Positions 5,690-41,020 of a DNA stretch of 43,403 bases are shown piece by piece (the stretch's first letter is position 1; each line of letters begins with the position of its first letter). The position numbers and the translations under genes are program-made. Source of the stretch: Bacteroidia bacterium (GTDB lineage Bacteria; Bacteroidota; Bacteroidia; Bacteroidales; CAJPTX01); contig CAJPTV010000002.1 in the NCBI GenBank assembly GCA_905373665.1, positions 1 through 43,403 of the forward strand, written 5' to 3'. The notes under the pieces are model-generated. The model did not search any database, was not told where the DNA came from, and was given only the letters and a program-made list of their open reading frames with translations.

Positions 5690-5766
5690 GGGTTAGAAAA
5701 GCCTAGTGGCGAGTGGCTATGAGGGGCTGGAAGGATCGTGGCTGTGCCCCCTACGGGGGCGAGAGT

Positions 5767-5774
5767 TATCTTTG
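5767..5774 (+). promoter_or_regulatory. Candidate Bacteroidota -7 promoter box (TAnnTTTG)
   Basis: TATCTTTG lies 20 nt upstream of ATG 5795. No clear -33 TTTG was seen. Confidence 0.35.
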
Positions 5775-5794
5775 CCCCAAAATCAGAGACTAGC

Positions 5795-6043
5795 ATGATA
5801 GACTATACAGGCATTGCAGAGGAGGAGTTGAAATTACGCGTGGCAGAGGACTTCTTCCCTCAATACGACACTGCACACCGCATCGGTAAGATAGATTTTG
5901 CCGTGACCCTCCGCAACCCGCAACCCGCAACCCGCAACCCGCAACCCGCAACCCGCAACCCGCAACCCGGCGGGCGATGCAACAATGTTGCAATCTCTGC
6001 TTTGGGCAGAAGCCAAGCGCGGCACGATAACCGATATCTATAA
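5795..6043 (+). pseudogene. 5' segment of the Type IIG-like methyltransferase gene, currently out of frame with the main ORF at the heptamer tract
   Basis: The ORF from ATG 5795 encodes MIDYTGIAEEELKLRVAEDFFPQYDTAHRIGKIDFAVTL, runs through the CCGCAAC tract, and stops at 6041-6043. It overlaps the 5985 ORF in another frame. Confidence 0.6.
5911..5969. repeat. Perfect tandem heptanucleotide repeat (CCGCAAC)x8 plus a partial CCG
   Basis: Counted directly: eight units span 5911-5966. The unit length is not a multiple of 3. There are no stop codons in any of the six frames. Confidence 0.98.
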
Positions 6044-8297
6044 GCCCCTTGTACAGCTCGTGCTGACCATCGGCAGAGCACGCACCTTTGAGACCTACCT
6101 ACCGCCCCCCTTCCTCGGCGTCTTGGATGCGGAGAAGATCGTCTTCTTGCCCTACAAGGAAATTATGCCCTTTTTCGCTCTTAATGACTTCAACTGGAAT
6201 GTAACCCCGTCTGACGACACAACGCGAGAATTTGGGCTATTATATGAAGCAATACGAACAAGTTTAGAGAAGGCGGGCGAGCTCTATTGCTACCGCTACG
6301 ACGCTCACACCGAGGAGCTGCGCGCATTCATCCAGCAGCACTTTTCGCAGGGCGGGAGTCAGATACAGGTCAATAAGAACAATTTCGTGGCAGTATACCA
6401 GCGGTGGTTGGCGACGGTGCAGCCGAGCATAGCCGTAGACTGGGCACTACTTAAAAAGCAGGGCATCATTGACGGGGACTTCTTTTTGGCAGACCTGCTC
6501 TCCGAACACAACCAGACGCTCAAGGAGGCGCTCTATGTGCTGTTGCAGGATAACCGCTATGTCTTTGACCGTCGTATCGACCTGAGTGGCTTTCTCATGG
6601 AGAAGCAGGTCTTTTTTAAGGACAAGCAACGCGCCCACACTCAGTTCTGGAGTCTCTACCAACGCCCGCCGCGCGAGGAGTATTGGGCGTATATCATCGA
6701 CCGGCGCGACCTCCTTGTGCCACAGGATGTGCGCGAACGCAAGGGGTCGTTCTTCACCCCGAAGCAATGGGTGGAGCTCTCGCAGCAGTATATAGCCGAT
6801 GTGCTGGGCGAGAACTGGCAAGAGGAGTACTACGTCTGGGACTGTGCGGCGGGCACGGGCAATCTGCTCAATGGGCTGACGAACAAGTACAACATCTGGG
6901 CCTCTACCCTCGACCCGCAAGACGTGCAGGTGATGAAAGATCGCATTGCCAACGGCGCGAACCTCCTCGAGAGCCACGTCTTCCAATTTGACTTCCTCAA
7001 CGACGAGTTTGATAAACTACCCGCAGGGTTGCAGGAGATAATCAATGACCCCGAGAAGCGGAGGAAGCTGGTCGTGTATATTAACCCGCCGTATGCGGAG
7101 GCGGGGAATGCGCGAACTCGAACGGGCGAGCGGAATAAGAGTGATGTTTCCAATACAACGCGCGTATGTGAGCAGTTTCGTTCGCAGCTCGGGTTGGGGA
7201 TACGAGAGCTCTTTGCGCAATTCCTCGTGCGTATTTACTCGGAGCTTCCTGCGTGTAACGTAGGCATATTTAGCACATTAAAATATTTGCAAGGTTCTAG
7301 TTTTAAGGCATTTCGGAACTTCTTTCTTGCCCGTCTACAGCGTGGCTTTCTCGTCCCAGCAGACACCTTCGATAATGTGAAAGGTGTATTCCCAATAGCA
7401 TTCTCCTTGTGGGATTTGTCTGAGAAACGACAATTTCGTGAGCACCTCTTTGATGTTTACCTTGTTGCCGCACAAAAACTCGCAACGTCGAAACGCATCT
7501 TAGCCTTGGAGGATAGCCCCCGTATTACGGACTGGATCGCGCGTTACCAAAAAAAGACAAATCCCATCGGTTATACGGGGAACTATGCCCCCGATTTACA
7601 ACACAACCAAGATCTTTACCTATCTAACCGTCAACTGGTGAACCGAAACCAAACTGTGAGTAATGCCACAAAGTATCGTATTGAGGCAAAAAACCTCATC
7701 CCGAGCTGTGTCTACTTTGCGACCCGTAAGGTAATATTACATACTTGGCTTAACAATCAAGACCAGTTCCTTTACCCAAACGACGGCTGGCAAACGGACA
7801 CAGAGTTCCAAACGAACTGCTTAGCTTTTACCCTTTTCCACGGAAAGAACAACATCCAGTCCCAATACGGCACTAACCATTGGATACCCTTCACCGAAGC
7901 AGAGGTCAATGCCCGCGACCGCTTTGAGAGTCACTTTATGACGGACTTCATGGCAGGGAAGCTTGCCAAGAACGAGAAAGAAAGTAACGGGAGTTTATTT
8001 CAATCCCAGTCGTTCGTCCCCACCGTGCCACTCGTCTTTTCGCCCGAGGCGACGGCGGTCTTTGATGCGGGACGCGAGCTCTGGCGCTACTATCATGCGC
8101 AACCCCACGCCAACCCCAATGCCTCGTATTACGACATTCGCGCGCATTTCCAAGGGCGTAACGGTCAGGGAAAGATGAACGCCAAAAGTGACGACGCGGA
8201 GTATATGCGCCTGTGGGGCAACCTCAAGGAGGCGATGGAGGTGCTGCGGCAGCAGATCGTCCCCAAGGTGTATGAGTATGGTTTTCTGATTAAGTAG
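5985..8297 (+). CDS. Gamma-class N6-adenine DNA methyltransferase with C-terminal target-recognition region (Type IIG-like)
   Basis: Motifs: FFTP, motif I VWDCAAGTGNLL, and motif IV VVYINPPYAEAG downstream of motif I. About 270 aa follow the catalytic core. ATG 5985 is the first start in this frame, which is closed upstream by TGA 5904-5906. Confidence 0.85.
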   Translation: MLQSLLWAEAKRGTITDIYKPLVQLVLTIGRARTFETYLPPPFLGVLDAEKIVFLPYKEIMPFFALNDFNWNVTPSDDTTREFGLLYEAIRTSLEKAGELYCYRYDAHTEELRAFIQQHFSQGGSQIQVNKNNFVAVYQRWLATVQPSIAVDWALLKKQGIIDGDFFLADLLSEHNQTLKEALYVLLQDNRYVFDRRIDLSGFLMEKQVFFKDKQRAHTQFWSLYQRPPREEYWAYIIDRRDLLVPQDVRERKGSFFTPKQWVELSQQYIADVLGENWQEEYYVWDCAAGTGNLLNGLTNKYNIWASTLDPQDVQVMKDRIANGANLLESHVFQFDFLNDEFDKLPAGLQEIINDPEKRRKLVVYINPPYAEAGNARTRTGERNKSDVSNTTRVCEQFRSQLGLGIRELFAQFLVRIYSELPACNVGIFSTLKYLQGSSFKAFRNFFLARLQRGFLVPADTFDNVKGVFPIAFSLWDLSEKRQFREHLFDVYLVAAQKLATSKRILALEDSPRITDWIARYQKKTNPIGYTGNYAPDLQHNQDLYLSNRQLVNRNQTVSNATKYRIEAKNLIPSCVYFATRKVILHTWLNNQDQFLYPNDGWQTDTEFQTNCLAFTLFHGKNNIQSQYGTNHWIPFTEAEVNARDRFESHFMTDFMAGKLAKNEKESNGSLFQSQSFVPTVPLVFSPEATAVFDAGRELWRYYHAQPHANPNASYYDIRAHFQGRNGQGKMNAKSDDAEYMRLWGNLKEAMEVLRQQIVPKVYEYGFLIK

Positions 8298-8395: not shown

Positions 8396-10018
8396 CTAGC
8401 AGTTTATTACTTCTTCTTCCCATTCCCCTACATTCCTCTTCTTCTCGTCAAAGCTAATGCCTACGAGGTGGATGGGACGCTTATCACCATTAAATTGCGC
8501 TAAGTAGCCACTCGCTTTCAACTGCGCGATGGCATCCTGTGGCGTCCCCGCAGTCATTACCTTAAATTCAAAAAGGTAGACGCGTTCAGGAGTAGTGATC
8601 ACCATATCTACGCGCCCTGTGGAGCAGACTACCTCGGTTTCTACTTGCATCCCCAAGACGTAGAAAAGCGCGTAAAGTACTGATTGGTAATAGTATTCCC
8701 GTAGGGGTTGTCCTTCTTCACCACTAGGGATATTCCCGTAGTAAATCTTGGTAAGCACTTTTTCTACCCATAGAAGTACTACGGATAAATCGCCAGAAAG
8801 AAGGGAACGAGTAATGTTTCCAACAGACTTAGAGATAAGCGATCCATCAGCAGCCGTGTAAAAAGGCAGCAAGTTCTTTAGGAAACAGTGGCGTACTTCT
8901 TCGTTAGGGAAGCCAAGGATGAAGTGATTAAGTTCTGGGTAATAGTCTTTAATAGTCAGATAACCAGACTGGAATAAAATAGGGATGGAGTCTGTACTCC
9001 CGTAACGGAAGTTTTGCATAGAGTCGCTGTCAATCTCTATTTCGTCATTAAGTTCAGGGATGGGGTAGACGTTTTGTAAAAGGGCTTTCACAACATATTC
9101 GGGAGTCGCTGTCTCGAACCAGTAGTATTCAAATTCTTTATAGGCAAGTACGCGCAGTAAACTAAATGGGTTGTAGACTTGCTCTCCTCTTCGTGAAAAA
9201 GAATAGCCATCGTATCTCTTTTTGAGGAGATGCCGTGTAGCATCTATTGAGTTTTTCTGCTTTGCTGCCAGCTGTTCTATTTCAGGCATAAAATTGTCGG
9301 AGAGCTCTTGTTCTGTGAAGCCACAGATGGCGGAATAGTCATCTAACAATGAGATGTCTATTAAGTTGTTGGCGCCACTAAAGAGGTTCGTCTTACTGAA
9401 CTTGGTGATCCCAGTGAGGATGGCGAAGCGGATGTAGCGATCGCAGTATTTAAGCACTTCGAAGAATGCACGAAGGAGGGAGCGGTTCGCCTCGTTGAGT
9501 TCGGGGTCTTGTAGTGTGAGCAGAAGAGGTTTGTCGTACTCGTCAATAAGGACAACGACTTGTTTGTGCGTTTTTTCGTAGAGGGTCTCTATGAGATAAA
9601 TAAATCGTTCTTCGGGAGCTTCCCCCTCACTTACGACTTGATACTCCGTTTCTAGCTTCTTTAGTTGTTTTAAAAGGTGGTTAGGTAATGCATCTTGGGT
9701 GATATAATTCCTCGCATTCAGATTGAGGTAAAGTACAGGGCTTTCCTCCCACGGTTCACATTTTTGTCTGCGCGCGATCTCCTCCTCGTGCTCTGCAATG
9801 TAAAGTCCGTCGAAAAGCGCTTTTTTCCCTTCGAAGTAGGATTGGAGGGTAGATAAAAAAAGGCTTTTCCCAAAGCGGTGTGGACGGCTTAGGAAGAAAA
9901 AGCGTCCGAGTTGGAGGAGTTTTTCGATGTACTGGGTTTTATCTACGTAGACATTCCCTGCATTACGTACTTGTTCAAAGCTTTGGGTGTCGATGGGTAA
10001 AATGCGTGGTATGTTCAT
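8396..10018 (-). CDS. AAA-ATPase-like domain protein with C-terminal PD-(D/E)XK nuclease-like domain (DUF1703/PDDEXK_9 type), paralog 1
   Basis: N-terminus IDTQSFEQVRNAGNVYVDKTQYIEKLL...FLSRPHRFGKSLFLSTL (P-loop-like) and Walker B-like VLIDEYDKPL. The C-terminus GRVDMVI...VYLFEFKV resembles D...ExK. It is AT-richer than its neighbours. Confidence 0.85.
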   Translation of the reverse strand: MNIPRILPIDTQSFEQVRNAGNVYVDKTQYIEKLLQLGRFFFLSRPHRFGKSLFLSTLQSYFEGKKALFDGLYIAEHEEEIARRQKCEPWEESPVLYLNLNARNYITQDALPNHLLKQLKKLETEYQVVSEGEAPEERFIYLIETLYEKTHKQVVVLIDEYDKPLLLTLQDPELNEANRSLLRAFFEVLKYCDRYIRFAILTGITKFSKTNLFSGANNLIDISLLDDYSAICGFTEQELSDNFMPEIEQLAAKQKNSIDATRHLLKKRYDGYSFSRRGEQVYNPFSLLRVLAYKEFEYYWFETATPEYVVKALLQNVYPIPELNDEIEIDSDSMQNFRYGSTDSIPILFQSGYLTIKDYYPELNHFILGFPNEEVRHCFLKNLLPFYTAADGSLISKSVGNITRSLLSGDLSVVLLWVEKVLTKIYYGNIPSGEEGQPLREYYYQSVLYALFYVLGMQVETEVVCSTGRVDMVITTPERVYLFEFKVMTAGTPQDAIAQLKASGYLAQFNGDKRPIHLVGISFDEKKRNVGEWEEEVINC

Positions 10019-10108
10019 TGCAACCTATTTTCGTTACCACGAAGGTAATGAAAAAGGGACTAGCCTCTTACCTTGTGAAGACATAAGATCTGTAGGCGAT
10101 ATGCAACT

Positions 10109-10185
10109 CTTCTCTTTGTCTTCTCTTTGTCTTCTCTTTGTCTTCTCTTTGTCTTCTCTTTGTCTTCTCTTTGTCTTCGGTTTGT
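10109..10185. repeat. Tandem 11-bp repeat CTTCTCTTTGT, six perfect units plus one variant (CTTCGGTTTGT)
   Basis: Counted directly. It lies in the 302-bp divergent intergenic region, 90 nt from the ATPase start (10018) and 135 nt from the glnS start (10321). Confidence 0.97.
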
Positions 10186-27471: not shown

Positions 27472-28896
27472 CTACCACACCTCCTCCATTCTTTCCCTGA
27501 TGCTTTTTCCCGTAGTCTTGTCACCAAAAAGAGCACCCTTTTCCACCCCCTGTACTTCTACCCGATAGGTAGCCGCTTGAGTTACCACCTCAAGCCGATC
27601 GCCCGTAGCAGCCATAGTGGTGGGGCGTAGTAACGCATAGCCGTTGCGGAGCACTTGACGCGGGTCGCTTGCCATGCATTCGGCTAGGGTGACCAGATAG
27701 TCCATGCGCGTCTGCTGTAGGGCGCGTTCTACGTGCGGCGTGGTCGTCTGTACGCTGTTTTGCAGCCGTTGAGGGAAGGCATCGAGGCGGTGTTGGGCGA
27801 GCAACGCCCCCTTTTCTACGAGATGTTTAAGCGCTGGCGCATATTGCCGCAGGAGGCTCTGTACCCCGAGCGCTTTCCCTTCCATTTGCAGACGAAGAGC
27901 CTGTTTTGATTGTGAAAGAAGGTGCGTCGCACGGAGTACGGCCTCTTCTTGGAGGTGCTGCAGGGTTTGAACATACTCGGCAGTATACCCCTCGAGCAAG
28001 GGGACGACGGTTTGCATTACCCGTTGCAGTGCTCCCTCGGCGCTCACAAAGATCTCTTCGAGGGCTGCTGCTACGGCGGTCGGCGTTTTCAGGGAGGTGT
28101 GCGCCACGTAGTCCACCACCGAGACGTCGCGTTCGTGCCCAATCCCTGCCACGACGGGTAGGGGGAACTGTGCTACGACGGAAGCAAGCTCGTAGTCGTC
28201 GAAACAACTCAAGTCCATTTTCCCACCCCCGCCGCGGATTATAACCACGATGTCCCACTCCGTTTCGGCATCGGCTATACGAAAGAGCGCCTCTCGGATG
28301 GAGGCAGAGGCTTTGTCCCCCTGCATGAGTGCGGGAAAGAGCGCTAGCTGAAGATGGTAACGCGCGGTAGCGGCAGCAAGCTGATGACAGAAGTCCTCAT
28401 ACCCCGCAGCCTGTGCAGCCGACACTACGGCAATGCGGTGTGGGAACTCAGGGAAGGGGAGTGCACGGTTCAGCTCCAGTACCCCGTCAGCTTCCAGTTG
28501 CGCAAGGGTCTTTTGGCGTTGGATAGCGAGCTCGCCTACGGTATATTGTGGGTCAATATCTACCACTTGCAGCCCCATCCCGTAGCGTACGGAATATTCC
28601 ACCTTTACCCGCAACAGGAGCTGCAACCCTTTACGTAGCGTGGTTTGGGTCATAGACTCGAAATAGGGGCGAATGGCACTATACTGCTTTGCCCAAATCA
28701 TGGCGCGCATGGAGGAGAGTTCTACGCGGCTTTCGGGGTCAAACTCCGTAAGTTCGAGATAGCAGTGTCCTGACGGCGCCTCGCGGATGGAGGCTATCTC
28801 TGCGACGACCCACACGGGGGTTGTAAACTGTGCAGCAATGGCATTGTGCACCCGCTCTGCGAGTTCGTGAAGGCGAAGGTAATGGGCTGGAGGCAT
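27472..28896 (-). CDS. xseA: Exodeoxyribonuclease VII large subunit
   Basis: N-terminal OB-fold region (VWVVAEI...HCYLEL), then IAVVSAAQAAGYEDF, IIRGGGG and GIGHERD motifs. Confidence 0.9.
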   Translation of the reverse strand: MPPAHYLRLHELAERVHNAIAAQFTTPVWVVAEIASIREAPSGHCYLELTEFDPESRVELSSMRAMIWAKQYSAIRPYFESMTQTTLRKGLQLLLRVKVEYSVRYGMGLQVVDIDPQYTVGELAIQRQKTLAQLEADGVLELNRALPFPEFPHRIAVVSAAQAAGYEDFCHQLAAATARYHLQLALFPALMQGDKASASIREALFRIADAETEWDIVVIIRGGGGKMDLSCFDDYELASVVAQFPLPVVAGIGHERDVSVVDYVAHTSLKTPTAVAAALEEIFVSAEGALQRVMQTVVPLLEGYTAEYVQTLQHLQEEAVLRATHLLSQSKQALRLQMEGKALGVQSLLRQYAPALKHLVEKGALLAQHRLDAFPQRLQNSVQTTTPHVERALQQTRMDYLVTLAECMASDPRQVLRNGYALLRPTTMAATGDRLEVVTQAATYRVEVQGVEKGALFGDKTTGKSIRERMEEVW

Positions 28897-28908: not shown

Positions 28909-29262
28909 TTACTCTTGCGAAGTTACGCTCGCTCGGGTTCTGTACTGTTGTTGTGGGTGGTTTTCTACCTGCGGGTATAGCATTTCAAGCTTTCCTGATT
29001 GGATTAACGCGGGGAGAACGGCATTCCTTATGTAGTTCTTGTTGCGACCGAGGTATGCTGCTATCTGTTGTACGCTTTTCCAATCGACGCAGTAGTGGCA
29101 GATGAGCGCCGTTCGTTGCGCCTCGCTGAGCTTACGTGGCGTAGGTTGCAAGGTTTGTTCCTCTAGGTTGCAAGGTTTAGTGTCTGAGGTTGCAAGGTTT
29201 AGTGTCTGAGGTTGCAAGGTTTGTTCCTCTAGGTTGCAAGGTTTGTTCCTCGTTTCAAACAT
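28909..29262 (-). CDS. Small winged-helix (wHTH) protein; N-terminal part is read through a DNA repeat array and the true start is uncertain
   Basis: The C-terminal ~75 aa (LSEAQRTALICHYCVDWKSVQQIAAYLGRNKNYIRNAVLPALIQSGKLEMLYPQVENHPQQQYR) resembles, from memory, the C-terminal wHTH of Fic/AlbA_2-type regulators. The first ~40 codons are the 22-bp repeats. It lies 12 nt upstream of xseA. Confidence 0.5.
   Translation of the reverse strand: MFETRNKPCNLEEQTLQPQTLNLATSDTKPCNLEEQTLQPTPRKLSEAQRTALICHYCVDWKSVQQIAAYLGRNKNYIRNAVLPALIQSGKLEMLYPQVENHPQQQYRTRASVTSQE
29143..29252. repeat. Five tandem 22-bp direct repeats: 14-bp core AGGTTGCAAGGTTT plus 8-bp variable part
   Basis: Counted directly. On the + strand the unit order is A B B A A', where A ends GTTCCTCT, B ends AGTGTCTG and A' ends GTTCCTCG. 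The core contains the palindrome TTGCAA. Confidence 0.97.
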
Positions 29263-31896: not shown

Positions 31897-31942
31897 CGCC
31901 CGTAGAAAAGGGGGCTAGAGAATCCAAAAGCTGCATTGTGCG

Positions 31943-31950
31943 TATATTTG
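31943..31950 (+). promoter_or_regulatory. Candidate -7 promoter box (TAnnTTTG) for the C25 peptidase gene
   Basis: TATATTTG ends 6 nt before ATG 31957, implying a leaderless or very short-leader mRNA. Confidence 0.4.
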
Positions 31951-31956
31951 CGAAAG

Positions 31957-34900
31957 ATGGAAAAGGAAAGGAAGAACCGACGTAGCTCTTGGCAAGGGCT
32001 TCTCGTAGTGGGGCTTTGGTTGCTCTGTTTACAGACAACAGCACAGCCCGTTGTTTGGAGACAAGAACGACAGGGGAACGAGACTCGAATCCGAGTCGCT
32101 CTCCCACCCCTTAAGTTGAAAAGCCCAAGAGGCTATGCGGAGGGGAAAGTCCCCGTATTAGAAGAGGGCGTCTCTTGGGCAGCAGCAGGCGAGCCCGACC
32201 TGCCCGAGGTTGCCTACGAAATCGCCGTAGCGGGCGCAGAAGGGGCACAGCTCCTTGAGGTAGACTGGGAGGGCGAGGAAAGGCTCACGGGCGTAAGTAT
32301 CGCCCCCGCAGCAGCGCATCACTTGGTCGGTCAGTCTCCGAAAGCGCGGGTACGCGGGGCGGTCTATTCACAAGACGTTCTTTTCCCAAAAAAGCGGGTG
32401 GAGCTTAGTGCTCCTTACTATGCCCGTGAGGGGTGGTATCAGACGGTGTATGTACGTCCGTACGCTTACCAACCGTTGCACGAAACGCTTTATAACCCCC
32501 AGTCGCTCACCCTTCGTTTGAAAGGGCTTAGGGGCGAACAGCGACAGACAAGACAAGAGACCAAAGGGGTACTCTCAAACGTAGAGGCTGGTGCGCTGCT
32601 GATTGCCACCCCCGCCAAATACCTTGCCACCCTCGCGCCGTTTGTGCAGTGGAAGCGCGATAAGGGGCTGCCCGTGGAAATTGTCCTCTTTGGCGAAGAG
32701 GGGACGGGCTACCCCAAGGTGCAGGACAGTACGGCACTCCGCGCCTTCCTTCAGAAGCGTTACCAACAGAACGATCCGCCGCTAAAATATCTGCTCTTAG
32801 TGGGCAATCGAGAGGAGCTCCCCCCGCTGCGACGGCGTGGTGCTACGAAGCTCGCAGATAGCGACCAAGCTTATGGGCAGCTCGTCGGCAACGATTCGCG
32901 TAATGAGGTTTACGTCGGACGCTTCCCCGCCTATACCCTTGAGCAGCTCGAGGTGCAGGTCAAGCGTGTGCTTTACTACGAACGCGATATCTCCGCCGCC
33001 AGTACCCGCCTTGACTATGGCTTGTGTATCTCCTCAAACGAGGGATGGGGGATCGGCGACAATAACGAGACCGACTACGAACACTCCGAAGGGCTACAGC
33101 GTGTGCTCCTACAGGGCGGTTACAAGGGCGTGGCTTTTCTCTTTGACCAAGACAACAAGAAGATTACCGCAGAGTCCGTAGCCAAGGAGGTAGGGCGCGG
33201 CGTCGGGGTCATCAATTATGTAGGGCACGGCTATCGCACCCGCTGGACTACCTCGGGCTATTCGGTCAACGACGTCTATGCTCTCGAGCAAACGGAGGCA
33301 CTCCCCGTGATTTTTGACGTTGCTTGTAGTAACGGAGATATGGAGGTCTCTCCCTGCTTTGCCGAGGCGTGGATGTGGTCTCAACATGGGACGAAACCGA
33401 GCGGCGCAATCGGAATCTGTGCCAGTAGCGATGAGCAGTATTGGGCGCCCCCTATGCGTGCGCAAGACCGCATGAACGATTACTTTACCAAGCGTTCGGA
33501 TCATCCCTACGTTGTAACCCTCGGGGGGATTATGACGGCTGGGATAGACGATATGCTATTGCGTTATCACGACGAACCTGGGAAGGCGGGGCGCGTAACC
33601 GCAGTAACGTGGAATATCTTTGGCGACCCGAGCCTCGTCCTTCGGCGTAAAGCCCCCGAGCCGTTGCAGGTGATCCATGCGCCAGAAGTCTATTCGTCAG
33701 AAACGGCCCTGCGTGTCCGCTGTGATACGGAGGGGATGGAGGCGATACTCCGCATCAATTATTCCTCGGGCGAGGTACGTTACCAAAAGGCGGTAATCAG
33801 TGGTGGCGAGGCGCAGTTTGATGGGCTACGGCTCACGGGCTGTTCGGGGCTACACCTGACGGTCTGGGGGGTGAACAAAGAGACCTACTCTGCCGAAATC
33901 CCTTGCCTAGAAGGCGTGCCGAGCCCCGTACGCATCCAAGAACTCTCGCTTGCCCCCATTTCGGTAATGCAGGCTGGGGTGGTGAGTGCTGGCGATGAGT
34001 GGGAGGTGCGGTGTAAGATCTCTTACGCGGGGACGGAAATCCCGTATGCAGGGGTCAACGTCGGGCTCACCGTTACACCGAGCAAGGGAATCACCCTCAC
34101 CTATGTGACGAAGGAGTTGCCCCCCTTTATGGCTACGGGCGAAGTGGCGTACGTCGTGGGGCGTCTCAAGATCGGAGAAGAGGTGGAAAATCAAACCCTC
34201 CTCTCCCTCGCCCTACAGTTACGACGCGGCGGGGAGCTAGTCGCATCTCGCTCCTACACAACGAAGGTATTTGCTCTAGACGTCAAATTGAGTGAACCGT
34301 GGAGTGCTTCGACTCTGACGGCTGCGGCAGGCAAGTCGTTTGAGGTTGAGGTGTTGTTAGAGAACAAAGGGATGTTGGATTTCAACGGCGGCACGCTGCG
34401 TTACTATTGGGAGGGGGCAGAAACGCAATACGTTGAAAAAAGTTTAGCGCTCCTCGCGCACAACGCAGAGCGCAGCGTCGTACAACGAACCACAATCCCT
34501 CCCCCCTTAGCCCCATTCCAAGAGGCACGCCTTTGGGTAGAATTGCGTCAAGGTGAACGGCTATTGGAACGGCGAGCGCTGCGCGTTATAGGCAGCTTAT
34601 CCTTAAACCCAGAGACGCTTTGGCAAACGACTTTTCCCTTCTCAAAGCAAGCAGAGGAGCTGACGGAGACCCTCTACTACTTTGGCGAGCCCGTGCTAGA
34701 TGGGGCTTATTCGCGTATCCTTGGGGTACGCATTCCCATCTTTTCCAAAGCAAAAGAGCTGCGCGTCCGAGGGCTCTATGCAGATATTCTAACCCTAGCA
34801 GAGCAAAAGAAGCTCTCGGGTGCTGCAATCGAAGTGCTCGGCGATCGTACGCGCGATACGGTGCTGAAGATAGAGAACAACTATATCACTATTCCACTTG

Positions 34901-35820
34901 CTAAGTCTTTTGACTACGTTGAAGGGAAAACCCTAGAACTTGCCCTGCGCATCCAAAGCGTGGGGATGGAGGAAACGGCGTCTTATTTCCTACCCACCAA
35001 GCGCACGAGCCAGACAAAGAGCCTTGTACGAAGTGAGCGCCTTGGGAAAAGAGAGGTGACGGAGCATGCGTCGCTCCCCCCGTTGCGCTTCACCTTTGCC
35101 GACAACGTCACGTTTGAGTTCACGGTGGTCGATACTGCGGGTAAGCCCGTTGCCAATGCCGAAATAGACCTCGCGGGGTATGTAGAGCGCACGGATGCTA
35201 ACGGCGAGACGCCCTTTAGGTATCTCGAGGGAGATTATGCCGCAACGGTCTTTAGTGCCGCGCACGGTACGCAGCATTTTAACCTTCGTCTGCGAAAAGA
35301 AAACCCTGACATCCGGCTCGTATTACAAGCGCCCGAGCTATCTCACGTTACCCTTGTCTTAATGGACAAAAACGAGGGACGCATTCCCCACGGCGAGGTG
35401 ATTTATGAGGGCGAACGCTATATAGCCAATGAGGAGGGGGAGGTCGGACTCGCGCTCTTGGGTGGCATACGGCGTGTACGGGTCTTTGCCGAAGGCTATC
35501 AGGGTGGCGATGTCGCTATTCGCGTAACTGATCAGCTCAAGCAGTTCACGATTTACCTCTCGCCCCGAGCGCCAGAGGCCGTCTTTGAGGTGGTGTGTGC
35601 CCCGAACCCCGTATCTGAGCGCCTTCGCGTCTCTTCGTCATCACTTATGACCCAAGTGCGGGTCTACGACGTCGCGGGGGCTGTGGTCGCTCAGGCGCAG
35701 TGGAGTGGCTATGGGTATGAAATAGATATGCGACATTTGCCGCGAGGTGTGTATGTCGTGGAGGTGCGAGGCGATGAGGCAAAAAAAGTGGCTAGGCACC
35801 GTATCGTAAAAGATAGATGA
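31957..35820 (+). CDS. Gingipain-family (C25) cysteine peptidase with T9SS C-terminal sorting domain
   Basis: Signal peptide and propeptide-like N-terminus. C25 core LLIATPAKYLATLAPFVQWKRDKG, with catalytic His and Cys contexts YVGHG and FDVACSNG. CarboxypepD_reg-like repeats follow. The C-terminus VCAPNPVSERLRV...VRVYDVAGAVV...LPRGVYVVEV is a Por secretion tail. Confidence 0.88.
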   Translation: MEKERKNRRSSWQGLLVVGLWLLCLQTTAQPVVWRQERQGNETRIRVALPPLKLKSPRGYAEGKVPVLEEGVSWAAAGEPDLPEVAYEIAVAGAEGAQLLEVDWEGEERLTGVSIAPAAAHHLVGQSPKARVRGAVYSQDVLFPKKRVELSAPYYAREGWYQTVYVRPYAYQPLHETLYNPQSLTLRLKGLRGEQRQTRQETKGVLSNVEAGALLIATPAKYLATLAPFVQWKRDKGLPVEIVLFGEEGTGYPKVQDSTALRAFLQKRYQQNDPPLKYLLLVGNREELPPLRRRGATKLADSDQAYGQLVGNDSRNEVYVGRFPAYTLEQLEVQVKRVLYYERDISAASTRLDYGLCISSNEGWGIGDNNETDYEHSEGLQRVLLQGGYKGVAFLFDQDNKKITAESVAKEVGRGVGVINYVGHGYRTRWTTSGYSVNDVYALEQTEALPVIFDVACSNGDMEVSPCFAEAWMWSQHGTKPSGAIGICASSDEQYWAPPMRAQDRMNDYFTKRSDHPYVVTLGGIMTAGIDDMLLRYHDEPGKAGRVTAVTWNIFGDPSLVLRRKAPEPLQVIHAPEVYSSETALRVRCDTEGMEAILRINYSSGEVRYQKAVISGGEAQFDGLRLTGCSGLHLTVWGVNKETYSAEIPCLEGVPSPVRIQELSLAPISVMQAGVVSAGDEWEVRCKISYAGTEIPYAGVNVGLTVTPSKGITLTYVTKELPPFMATGEVAYVVGRLKIGEEVENQTLLSLALQLRRGGELVASRSYTTKVFALDVKLSEPWSASTLTAAAGKSFEVEVLLENKGMLDFNGGTLRYYWEGAETQYVEKSLALLAHNAERSVVQRTTIPPPLAPFQEARLWVELRQGERLLERRALRVIGSLSLNPETLWQTTFPFSKQAEELTETLYYFGEPVLDGAYSRILGVRIPIFSKAKELRVRGLYADILTLAEQKKLSGAAIEVLGDRTRDTVLKIENNYITIPLAKSFDYVEGKTLELALRIQSVGMEETASYFLPTKRTSQTKSLVRSERLGKREVTEHASLPPLRFTFADNVTFEFTVVDTAGKPVANAEIDLAGYVERTDANGETPFRYLEGDYAATVFSAAHGTQHFNLRLRKENPDIRLVLQAPELSHVTLVLMDKNEGRIPHGEVIYEGERYIANEEGEVGLALLGGIRRVRVFAEGYQGGDVAIRVTDQLKQFTIYLSPRAPEAVFEVVCAPNPVSERLRVSSSSLMTQVRVYDVAGAVVAQAQWSGYGYEIDMRHLPRGVYVVEVRGDEAKKVARHRIVKDR

Positions 35821-39256: not shown

Positions 39257-40936
39257 CTACTCCGCACTACGGAGCGTCTGGTGTGAGCCCCCTCCCTTAG
39301 CCCCGCCTGTCTCTGGCGTGAGTATCTCTTCTTTCCACTCGCCTACGTTGCGGCTCTTCTCATCAAAGCTTACGCCTACGAGGTGTAGGGTTCGTCCCTC
39401 GGGGGCTACTAGGCGGAAGTACTCTTTCTCCTTGATTTGCGCAATGGCATCCTGTGCCGTCCCCTGTGTATTGACTTTGAACTCGAAGATGTAAACGTGG
39501 TGCGTGGTGGCAACAAGCATGTCGATCTGCCCCGTAGCACAGACGACCTCCGTTTGAGCATACACCCCTAACAGGCGAAAGACGGCGTAAAGAACGGTTT
39601 GGTAGTACTGTTCGCGCAACGGACGTCCCTTCTCTCCCTTGGGGATGTTACCGTATCGAACCCCAGCAAGGAAGGTCACGACGTGCTCCATAACCTTGGC
39701 AAGGTTGCCAGCGTCGAAGAATTCATAAAGCTTTAGTACTTCAATATCGATATTGATGCGCGTAAAGCTGGAATAGAGCGGTAAGAGTTCGTGTAGGAAA
39801 CCAAAGCGCACCTCCTCGTTAGGGTAACCTAACTGGACGATCATCCCATTGCCCAGCACCCCCTTAATCGTAAGGTAACCTGATTGAAAGAGAAGGGGGA
39901 TGAGCGAGTCGTGGTCGTTGTAACGGAAATCTTGTACCGCCTGTACCCCGACCTTTATATCCTTGTCCAAATCAGGGACAAAGAGGTGAGTGCGTTTCAA
40001 GTAGTTGACTAGATAGGAGGGGGTGGCGGTCTCGAACCAATAGTAGTTGTAGGTGCTATCTGCCAAGACGTTCAGTAGACTAAAGGGGTTGTAGACGTTC
40101 TCGCCTTTTCGTGAAAAGCGATACCCGTCGTACTCTTTTTTGAGTCGTTGGCGTGTTGCTTCTACGTTGGTATTTTCTGCTAGGGCGAGTCGCTCTATTT
40201 CGGGCATAAAGTTGTCAGTAAGCTCTTGCTCAGTGAAGCCGCAAATGGCATCGTAGTTATCTAAGAGAGAGATGTCTTTCAAATTGTTCGCCCCGCTGAA
40301 GAGGTTGGTCTTACTGAACTTGGTTACGCCCGTTAGGAAGGCGAAGCGGATATACTCGTCGCAGTGCTTAAGAACCTCGTAAAAGGCTTTGAGGAGCAGA
40401 CGGTTGGTATCGTTGAGCTCGGGGTCATTTATCGTCTCGAGGAGGGGTTTGTCGTACTCGTCGACGAGAATGACGACCCGTTTACCCATACTCTCATAAA
40501 TCGTCTCTATGAGATAAATGAACCGCTCTTCTGGTACGTCTCCCTCTCCTACGACCTGATACTTCACTTCTAGTTTCTTAAGTTGTTTCAAGAGACGGTT
40601 AGGAAGAGATTCTTGATTGCCATAGTCTCTCGCATTGAAATCGAAGTAAAGCACAGGCATTTCCTCCCACGGCTCACGCTGTTGCCTGCGGGCAAGCTCC
40701 GCTTCATGGTCAGCGATATAGAGTCCCTCGAAGAGGTTCTTTCGTCCCTCAAAATAGGCTTGAAGGGTAGATAGGAAGAGGCTTTTGCCAAAACGATGGG
40801 GGCGACTTAGGAAGAAGAAGCGTCCGAGTGAAAGGAGTTTCTCTATGTACAGGGTCTTGTCTACATAGATAGTTCCAGCATTACGCACCTGTTCAAAGGT
40901 TTGCGTATCGATGGGTAGCCTGCGTTCCTCGGTCAT
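39257..40936 (-). CDS. AAA-ATPase-like domain protein with C-terminal PD-(D/E)XK nuclease-like domain, paralog 2
   Basis: Collinear with the 8396-10018 product and highly similar by eye (for example LPIDTQTFEQVRNAGTIYVDKTLYIEKLL, FLSRPHRFGKSLFLSTL). ATG 40936 (MTEERR) is preferred over 40981 because a TAnnTTTG box lies between the two. Confidence 0.85.
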   Translation of the reverse strand: MTEERRLPIDTQTFEQVRNAGTIYVDKTLYIEKLLSLGRFFFLSRPHRFGKSLFLSTLQAYFEGRKNLFEGLYIADHEAELARRQQREPWEEMPVLYFDFNARDYGNQESLPNRLLKQLKKLEVKYQVVGEGDVPEERFIYLIETIYESMGKRVVILVDEYDKPLLETINDPELNDTNRLLLKAFYEVLKHCDEYIRFAFLTGVTKFSKTNLFSGANNLKDISLLDNYDAICGFTEQELTDNFMPEIERLALAENTNVEATRQRLKKEYDGYRFSRKGENVYNPFSLLNVLADSTYNYYWFETATPSYLVNYLKRTHLFVPDLDKDIKVGVQAVQDFRYNDHDSLIPLLFQSGYLTIKGVLGNGMIVQLGYPNEEVRFGFLHELLPLYSSFTRINIDIEVLKLYEFFDAGNLAKVMEHVVTFLAGVRYGNIPKGEKGRPLREQYYQTVLYAVFRLLGVYAQTEVVCATGQIDMLVATTHHVYIFEFKVNTQGTAQDAIAQIKEKEYFRLVAPEGRTLHLVGVSFDEKSRNVGEWKEEILTPETGGAKGGGSHQTLRSAE

Positions 40937-40961
40937 CTTTGTCTCCTTCCGTTGGTTCTCA

Positions 40962-40969
40962 CAAAGATA
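40962..40969 (-). promoter_or_regulatory. Candidate -7 promoter box (TAnnTTTG) for ATPase paralog 2
   Basis: The minus strand reads TATCTTTG, 25 nt upstream of ATG 40936. Confidence 0.4.
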
Positions 40970-41020
40970 CGATTTTAACATGGCGCTAAGGGTGCGCAGC
41001 TCGTGTGGGAGTCGGAGTGT

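Follow-up and report, generated by a model that had tools for sequence, protein, structure and literature searches.

Our data suggest that a perfect heptanucleotide repeat, (CCGCAAC)x8, near the 5' end of a methyltransferase-like gene of a Bacteroidia bacterium serves as a genetic switch, and we put at roughly 0.7 the probability that the gene encodes a single-chain restriction-modification enzyme (a predicted activity) subject to slipped-strand phase variation. The gene lies in the window, by which we mean the whole stretch of 43,403 nucleotides that was analysed (contig CAJPTV010000002.1). In the proposed mechanism, positions 5795-8297 would form one gene, encoding a PD-(D/E)XK-like nuclease, a helical connector, a gamma-class N6-adenine methyltransferase (MTase) and a variable target-recognition domain, and slipped-strand mispairing at replication would add or remove units of 7 nt. 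With the right flank present in the window, 4, 7, 10 or 13 units would leave the gene in frame (ON), three units adding 7 residues to a loop, and any other count, eight included, would stop translation after about 80-130 codons (OFF). The outcome would be a heritable and reversible on/off switching of restriction together with methylation, i.e. a contingency locus. The features concerned are the following:

5767-5774, + strand: TATCTTTG, which matches the Bacteroidetes -7 consensus TAnnTTTG, 21 nt 5' of ATG 5795
5795-5910, + strand: 5' coding segment, codons 1-39, with a helix carrying E9-E11 and a strand with the catalytic-type D34 (5894-5896), from translation, homologues and AlphaFold
5904-5906, + strand: TGA closing the 770-codon frame directly 5' of the tract
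5911-5969, + strand: (CCGCAAC)x8 + CCG, the hypermutable heptanucleotide tract, in frame a (RNPQPAT)n loop, from TRF and cross-locus variation
5970-8297, + strand: rest of the gene in the downstream frame, with E70-x-K72, connector, MTase motifs, target-recognition region and C-terminal domain
6009-6017, + strand: E70-x-K72 in the downstream frame, from translation
6041-6043, + strand: TAA, the stop codon of the 82-codon upstream ORF when eight units put the gene out of frame
6840-6869, + strand: MTase motif I, DCAAGTGNLL, from translation
7083-7094, + strand: MTase motif IV, NPPY, from translation
about 7098-7742, + strand: variable target-recognition region, followed by a conserved C-terminal domain

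The sole array reported by TRF at this place spans 5911-5969 on the forward strand, with period 7, 8.4 copies of CCGCAAC and 100% matches, the exact periodic run being 59 nt. Eight perfect 7-mers cannot have arisen by chance. Two ORFs in different frames overlap here, one from ATG 5795 to the TAA at 6041-6043 (82 codons) and the other from ATG 5985 to 8297 (770 codons). When the locus was rebuilt in silico with 4 to 13 units, a single long ORF was obtained only at 4, 7, 10 and 13 units, with fused products of 824, 831, 838 and 845 aa, respectively. By this arithmetic the loss of one unit or the gain of two fuses the 82-codon and 770-codon ORFs into one of 831 or 838 codons. The unit contains no stop codon in any of the six frames, and each forward frame reads the cyclic peptide PQPATRN. 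As in contingency genes, a perfect repeat whose unit is not divisible by 3 is thus situated early in the coding region, at about codons 39-59 of 831. The first-pass annotation, made from the letters of the window, had described eight units plus a partial CCG, two overlapping ORFs in different frames with the TGA upstream of the tract, a fusion to about 830 aa upon loss of one or gain of two units, a repeat unit free of stops in six frames with PQPATRN in all forward frames, and a box at 5767-5774, where TATCTTTG is read directly; all of this, coordinates included, was borne out. Minus-strand ORFs over the tract (5790-5993, 5834-6025 and 5860-6081) were rejected as by-products of the stop-free repeat.

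From established knowledge of Bacteroides promoters we take TATCTTTG to be a putative promoter. The box is kept in all loci that share the 5' module, even where some 320 bp are inserted just upstream of it. Similar boxes precede the paralogues L008, L010, L013 and L014, and in an alternative 5' module (MDYRN...) the equivalent position is taken by TACCTTTA. The inserted sequence, found in L001-type strains (about 2410-2770 of L001, compared with 5715-5755 of the window), consists of about 320 bp of extra G+C-rich, hairpin-prone DNA between the gcvT terminator and TATCTTTG, and is absent from the window.

The upstream ORF has its counterpart in the homologues of the 770-aa protein, in which, according to the first-pass annotation, such an N-terminal segment should be present. 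Searching with the fused 831-aa sequence gave more than 8000 database protein matches, and among the 120 matches listed most have a length of 805-909 aa and align over the entire query (100%). Their N-terminus follows the pattern MxYxxLxEEELKxRIAExFFxxxDCxxRIGKIDFxV, then a variable linker and SLLWAEAKRG. In an alignment of 65 sequences, which took in representatives of clusters at 50% identity, D34 and K72 are invariant, and E9, K13, W68, E70 and Q85 each show conservation of 90% or more. The linker from GKIDF to LLWAEAK usually has 9-22 residues, with 31 or more being tolerated. Unexpanded relatives show TLRNPQPAHDATM (P0016), TLRTPQPAHDATM (P0011) or TLRTPAHDATI (P0008) at the linker, and at the peptide level they already hold one RNPQPA-like copy, which could be a proto-repeat.

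The family is large, with 2362 clusters at 50% identity having E ≤ 1e-3 and 791 having E ≤ 1e-30. Most members are from Bacteroidota, and the family is also found in Helicobacter, Brachyspira and Oscillibacter. At least 12 paralogues, with differing target-recognition regions, occur in a single metagenome-assembled genome (MAG) of an uncultured Bacteroidia, CAUTNK01 (L008-L021, L067), and at one further locus (L031) two family copies stand in tandem. An exact look-up of the 770-aa product of the window gave no record, yet the product is listed as a cluster member (P0127).

Other strains provide evidence for a switch. Syntenic loci, with the gene order M49 peptidase, gcvT, repeat gene, AAA-ATPase/PDDEXK_9 and glnS, were taken from other metagenome assemblies. 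The alleles on MEGAHIT k141 contigs were:

L001: 8 units of CCGCAAC, OFF
L002: 6 units of CCGCAAC, OFF
L003: 11 units of CCGCAAC, OFF
L208: 11 units of CCGCAAC, OFF
L211: 15 units of CCGCAAC, OFF
L007: 12 units of CCACAAC, OFF
L215 (the same as P0133): 7 units of CCACAAC, ON

In addition, the database protein P0139 is an in-frame product with 5 units (ON), and further alleles, of 3, 4, 4, 9, 9, 9, 13 and 14 units, were deduced from how long the upstream-ORF peptides in the protein database are. Overall, the resolved counts are 3, 4, 4, 5, 6, 7, 8, 9, 9, 9, 11, 11, 12, 13, 14 and 15, besides which further tracts are broken by scaffold gaps. L001 and L002 do not differ at a single position over 8260 flanking nt, yet they have 8 and 6 units, and the 2316-nt ORFs of L001, L002 and L003 are identical with 8, 6 and 11 units. 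Which counts are in frame depends on whether the right flank has 12 or 13 nt before the ATG; OFF alleles have 6, 8, 9, 11, 12, 13, 14 or 15 units, and on other right flanks also 3 and 4. Near-identical strains thus differ in unit number, and both ON and OFF alleles of an intact gene exist, as is found for contingency genes. The unit number, which the first-pass annotation had required not to be fixed at eight among related strains, ranges from 3 to 15 or more. Together with the existence of ON and OFF alleles and the N-terminal segment of the homologues, this polymorphism supports the proposal that the tract is a phase-variation switch. Slippage would be the source of the length changes, and the switching would presumably be reversible within a clone.

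The exact left flank plus tract had no match (0) among JGI metagenome contigs. At least 120 JGI contigs containing (CCRCAAC)x5 were rejected as unrelated microsatellites, since tblastn of the fused protein aligned the repeat peptide alone, and apparent extensions beyond this peptide crossed stop codons; the contigs are not homologous loci. These contigs (L088-L207), of marine, soil and other origin, carry CCGCAAC or CCACAAC tracts of at least 5 units, in many cases at the end of the contig. As a microsatellite, the heptamer recurs far outside the gene family.

The unit counts have to be read in the light of how the contigs were assembled. On SPAdes-style scaffolds the tract of all eight loci is exactly as short as a periodic run of at least 55 nt can be in the given phase (58-60 nt, "8 units"), and in four of the eight it contains N gaps. 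Because a k=55 de Bruijn graph collapses longer tracts, the SPAdes-style counts and the ON/OFF calls for L015, L213 and L214 are lower bounds. The gaps in these four assemblies are compatible with heterogeneity of the tract, but tract length alone could also explain them. In the window the tract, at 59 nt, equals the k=55 minimum exactly. The out-of-frame state of the window could accordingly be an assembly artefact, with a real tract that is longer and a gene that is perhaps in frame, a reading which is compatible with phase variation and which we consider unlikely. A perfect run of an 11-mer in the same window is 71 nt long and was not collapsed to its k=55 minimum of 60 nt, and MEGAHIT k141 contigs resolve 6, 7, 8, 11, 11, 12 and 15 units. 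Since the 71-nt run survived, and since the k141 contig of the window's own lineage (L001) has 8 units, the eight units in the window are probably real. The frame-shifting polymorphism in the resolved assemblies stands even if the window count is wrong. Among the recovered contigs the ON:OFF ratio is roughly 4-5 : 22, a value that is not interpretable because the look-ups went through OFF products and because of the k=55 collapse. For metagenomics it follows that short-k assemblers collapse or break such tracts, so that calls of a 770-aa "hypothetical protein" are systematically misleading.

The downstream ORF is well preserved also in out-of-frame alleles. No stop codon was found in it in any of the 8 out-of-frame or gap-interrupted alleles examined (8/8). 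Within the lineage, dN/dS is 0.023-0.096 at dS values of 0.14-0.17; the window and L004 differ by 66 synonymous and 6 non-synonymous changes (dN/dS 0.023), and for the window and L001 dN/dS is 0.093 (dS 0.17). There is strong purifying selection on this ORF even in OFF alleles, which argues against a decaying pseudogene.

Selection of this strength would also result from constant translation of the downstream ORF. In such a scheme, which we regard as quite unlikely, OFF states would start at ATG 5985 (M62) and yield a 770-aa, nuclease-dead MTase, and methylation would be constitutive with phase-variable cleavage. The 770-aa product would lose helix 1 and the D34 strand and keep the MTase and target-recognition domains. 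ATG 5985 is the first start after the tract, "DATMLQSLLW" is kept in all tract-bearing alleles, and the majority of the assembled alleles are OFF. If the scheme were true, methylation of the genome would persist as cleavage goes on and off, and turning ON would entail no self-restriction. However, the methionine is also present in the unexpanded relatives P0011 and P0016, while P0008 has isoleucine; the residue is therefore no hallmark of the switch. Moreover, the sequence upstream of 5985 is a G+C-rich repeat, in contrast to the A-rich, TAnnTTTG-preceded sequence upstream of 5795, and gene callers pick 5985 merely as the first ATG in the ORF. Purifying selection is explained equally well by periodic ON phases. 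It is just as doubtful that a toggle of restriction only is coupled to a multi-gene "phasome" of Type IIG-like enzymes; here the tract-bearing 5' module may move between paralogues, because it is found in three or four distinct genomic contexts.

That we are dealing with a neutral microsatellite that is unstable, lies in a decaying or dispensable gene and changes in length without any selected function, is very improbable: OFF alleles outnumber ON alleles in the assemblies, (CCRCAAC) tracts of at least 5 units in at least 120 unrelated environmental contigs indicate that the motif expands readily, and with at least 12 paralogues in one MAG a single copy may be dispensable, but the ORF is intact with dN/dS of 0.02-0.1 in OFF alleles, where a pseudogene would approach 1 and gain stops, ON alleles exist, and the tract, with its unit stop-free in three sense frames, occupies an insertion-tolerant site.

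The MTase motifs of the protein, DCAAGTGNLL and NPPY, are both conserved in an alignment of 65 diverse family members. The stretch from NPPY to "TWLNxxDQF" is swapped wholesale between otherwise near-identical homologues, and since such replacement is typical of target-recognition domains, we read it as the target-recognition region. None of the models in Pfam, NCBIfam and PADLOC, including Eco57I, MmeI and REase_MTase_IIG, matched the repeat-bearing gene above threshold. The best Pfam match was N6_Mtase (E 0.016; score 15 bits, cut-off 20.4), which is sub-threshold in 25 of 35 members, and other sub-threshold matches were MTase_II in PADLOC (E 0.0017) and MADS2 in NCBIfam (E 0.0015). A sequence profile search of the PDB gave spurious Rab matches only. 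As no curated model reaches threshold, the enzyme class rests on the motifs and the predicted fold, and the family would appear to be a divergent, unannotated relative of the Type IIG/IIL enzymes, not a recognised member.

An AlphaFold run with 35 close homologues had pLDDT below 50 for residues 1-320 and was unusable for the nuclease question, while the model from the 65-sequence alignment reached a mean pLDDT of 89 and a pTM of 0.73. The N-terminal elements of this model are, in order, a helix (9-20), strands 35-38 and 65-71, a helix (80-93) and strands 104-108 and 112-117, a succession that would be expected for a PD-(D/E)XK nuclease core; helix 9-20 and strand 35-38 are placed with high confidence. 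D34 is placed with strand 35-38, E70 on strand 65-71 with K72 next to it, and Q85 on helix 80-93. In a Foldseek search against the PDB the best matches were BpuSI (Type IIG; 3s1s; E 5.6e-11, 614 columns), DrdV (Type IIL; 7lo5) and MmeI (Type IIL; 5hr4; 830 columns), and further matches were LlaBIII (Type ISP) and BsaXI. The predicted fold is similar to that of BpuSI, DrdV and MmeI over 614-830 alignment columns, with NPPY, motif I and the N-terminal residues of D...ExK type in matching secondary-structure order. It differs from them in its low sequence identity (10-15%) and in having no sequence match to their Pfam domains, and the TM-scores to the solved enzymes are low (0.22-0.28) in these comparisons of multi-domain chains. 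Low TM-scores are usual for multi-domain chains. We know of none among BpuSI, DrdV and MmeI with a repeat in the nuclease hairpin.

From the motif conservation and the secondary-structure order of the whole model we infer that the N-terminal domain is a PD-(D/E)XK-like nuclease. The model supports a single chain that would combine this nuclease with a gamma-class N6-adenine MTase and a target-recognition domain, Type IIG/IIL-like by fold. The "Type IIG-like" label of the first-pass annotation therefore stands at the level of the fold, where BpuSI, DrdV and MmeI are the best matches, and does not extend to Pfam or NCBIfam models, none of which reached threshold. In the N-terminal part, pLDDT falls below 50 only at residues 44-60, the repeat peptide. 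This is consistent with a repeat that encodes, with residues 40-56 of the fused protein, a disordered hairpin loop between D34 and E70-x-K72, inside the predicted catalytic hairpin of the nuclease, a position that the first-pass annotation had not noticed. In-frame expansion should only lengthen this loop, as loop length varies naturally across the family.

Other insertions were seen in family members. In many relatives (P0003, P0013, P0017, P0020, P0022, P0027 and P0029) G+C-rich insertions are present in frame; their translations are GAKGARPVRATSGQGEDHT, VRTQRDAS or GASRCAPT, apparently one DNA read in different frames. The insertions are located at two sites, in the nuclease loop and after "EAIRASL", and resemble a small element, repetitive or mobile, which may be tolerated in coding sequence. 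In a homologue from a Cytophagales MAG (L026, 54% identity), positions 2641-2720, in the nuclease hairpin loop, contain three copies of the 26-bp G/C-palindromic TACTCCCCCTTTGGGGGCTGGGGGGC. This gene is split over two frames, and loss of one TACTCCCCCTTTGGGGGCTGGGGGGC unit would restore the frame. Here the hairpin site carries a repeat that is different from, and independent of, the heptamer.

The closest known parallel is Cj0031 of Campylobacter jejuni (CjeNIII-type), a Type IIG enzyme for which phase variation by a poly-G tract is established (PMC4889913). Both are single-chain nuclease-methyltransferases, predicted in our case, switched by the length of a simple repeat in the coding region. 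In contrast to Cj0031, the window gene has a 7-nt unit instead of poly-G, belongs to Bacteroidota rather than Campylobacterota, and comes from a family that has no Pfam, NCBIfam or PADLOC match above threshold. Effects on methylation and expression have been measured for Cj0031, whereas the window gene is known from sequence and model. Phasevarions based on Type III mod and Type I hsdM/hsdS genes are described for Haemophilus, Neisseria, Moraxella, Helicobacter and Streptococcus suis (PMC7383803, PMC4525171). Here too, a methyltransferase gene contains in its 5' part a repeat whose unit is not a multiple of 3, with strain-variable unit numbers and ON and OFF alleles. Those systems are, however, multi-subunit, and only the methyltransferase or specificity subunit switches, whereas the window gene would encode a single chain; their units are mostly 1, 4 or 5 nt compared to 7 nt in the window. 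A regulon effect is documented for the mod/hsdM/hsdS phasevarions, whereas our locus is known from its sequence.

In Bacteroides, invertase-driven phase variation of restriction-modification and surface genes is described in PMC11868660 and PMC9881135. The phylum is the same, and the outcome that we propose, a heritable reversible change in the specificity or expression of restriction-modification, would be alike. The invertase systems work by recombinase-mediated inversion between inverted repeats, whereas the window gene has a tandem-repeat frameshift with no invertase or inverted repeat. In a review of phase variation from 2025 (PMC11868660), the Bacteroides passages located with a term search deal with inversion or invertases, which agrees with the view of the first-pass annotation that a heptamer-switched restriction-modification gene is unusual for Bacteroidota. 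The main text of a REBASE survey of Type I repeats names neither Bacteroidetes genera nor heptanucleotide units (PMC7383803), and our literature search, by titles and abstracts, found no case of slipped-strand mispairing in Bacteroidales.

The mechanism itself is known, and what is new here is the phylum, the 7-nt unit, the position in the nuclease hairpin and the unannotated enzyme family. Phase variation in Bacteroidota has been described almost wholly as recombinase-driven inversion. The population evidence presented here, at the level of sequence, indicates that host-associated Bacteroidia also switch a defence or epigenetic gene by slipped-strand repeats, for which an adaptive role may be envisaged. 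It also brings out a large family built like Type IIG/IIL enzymes, with no above-threshold match in the libraries searched, whose nuclease hairpin loop would be a hot spot for repeats and insertions.

Some further features of the window should be mentioned. The perfect 71-nt run is (TCTTCTCTTTG)x6.5 at 10108-10178, in the divergent intergenic region between an AAA-ATPase/PDDEXK_9 gene (- strand, start 10018) and glnS (+ strand, start 10321). This repeat also varies by strain, with only about 4 imperfect copies in L001-L003, and may act as a promoter-spacing repeat. A second array, at 29142-29251, consists of five copies of the 22-bp TAGGTTGCAAGGTTTGTTCCTC alternating with the variant TAGTGTCTG, and is non-coding, between xseA (27472-28896, - strand) and a peptidase C69 gene (29779-31224, - strand). 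Two paralogous genes with AAA-ATPase_like and PDDEXK_9 domains are present, at 8396-10018 and 39257-40981 (both - strand). The former is the direct neighbour of the repeat-bearing gene; in L007 and L214 the two again lie side by side, in other arrangements.

The ORF at 27-2276 has N6_Mtase and Type_ISP_C domains and matches the PADLOC model REase_MTase_IIG (2e-189) from about profile position 550. As the ORF begins 27 nt inside the window, it seems to represent the C-terminal portion of a larger gene. It would be another restriction-modification gene, unrelated to the repeat gene and lying 3.5 kb upstream of it. Finally, positions 31936-35820 encode a 1294-aa protein with a Peptidase_C25 (gingipain-type) domain, a propeptide and a T9SS C-terminal sorting domain, which fits a Porphyromonas-like, host-associated lifestyle of this Bacteroidia bacterium.
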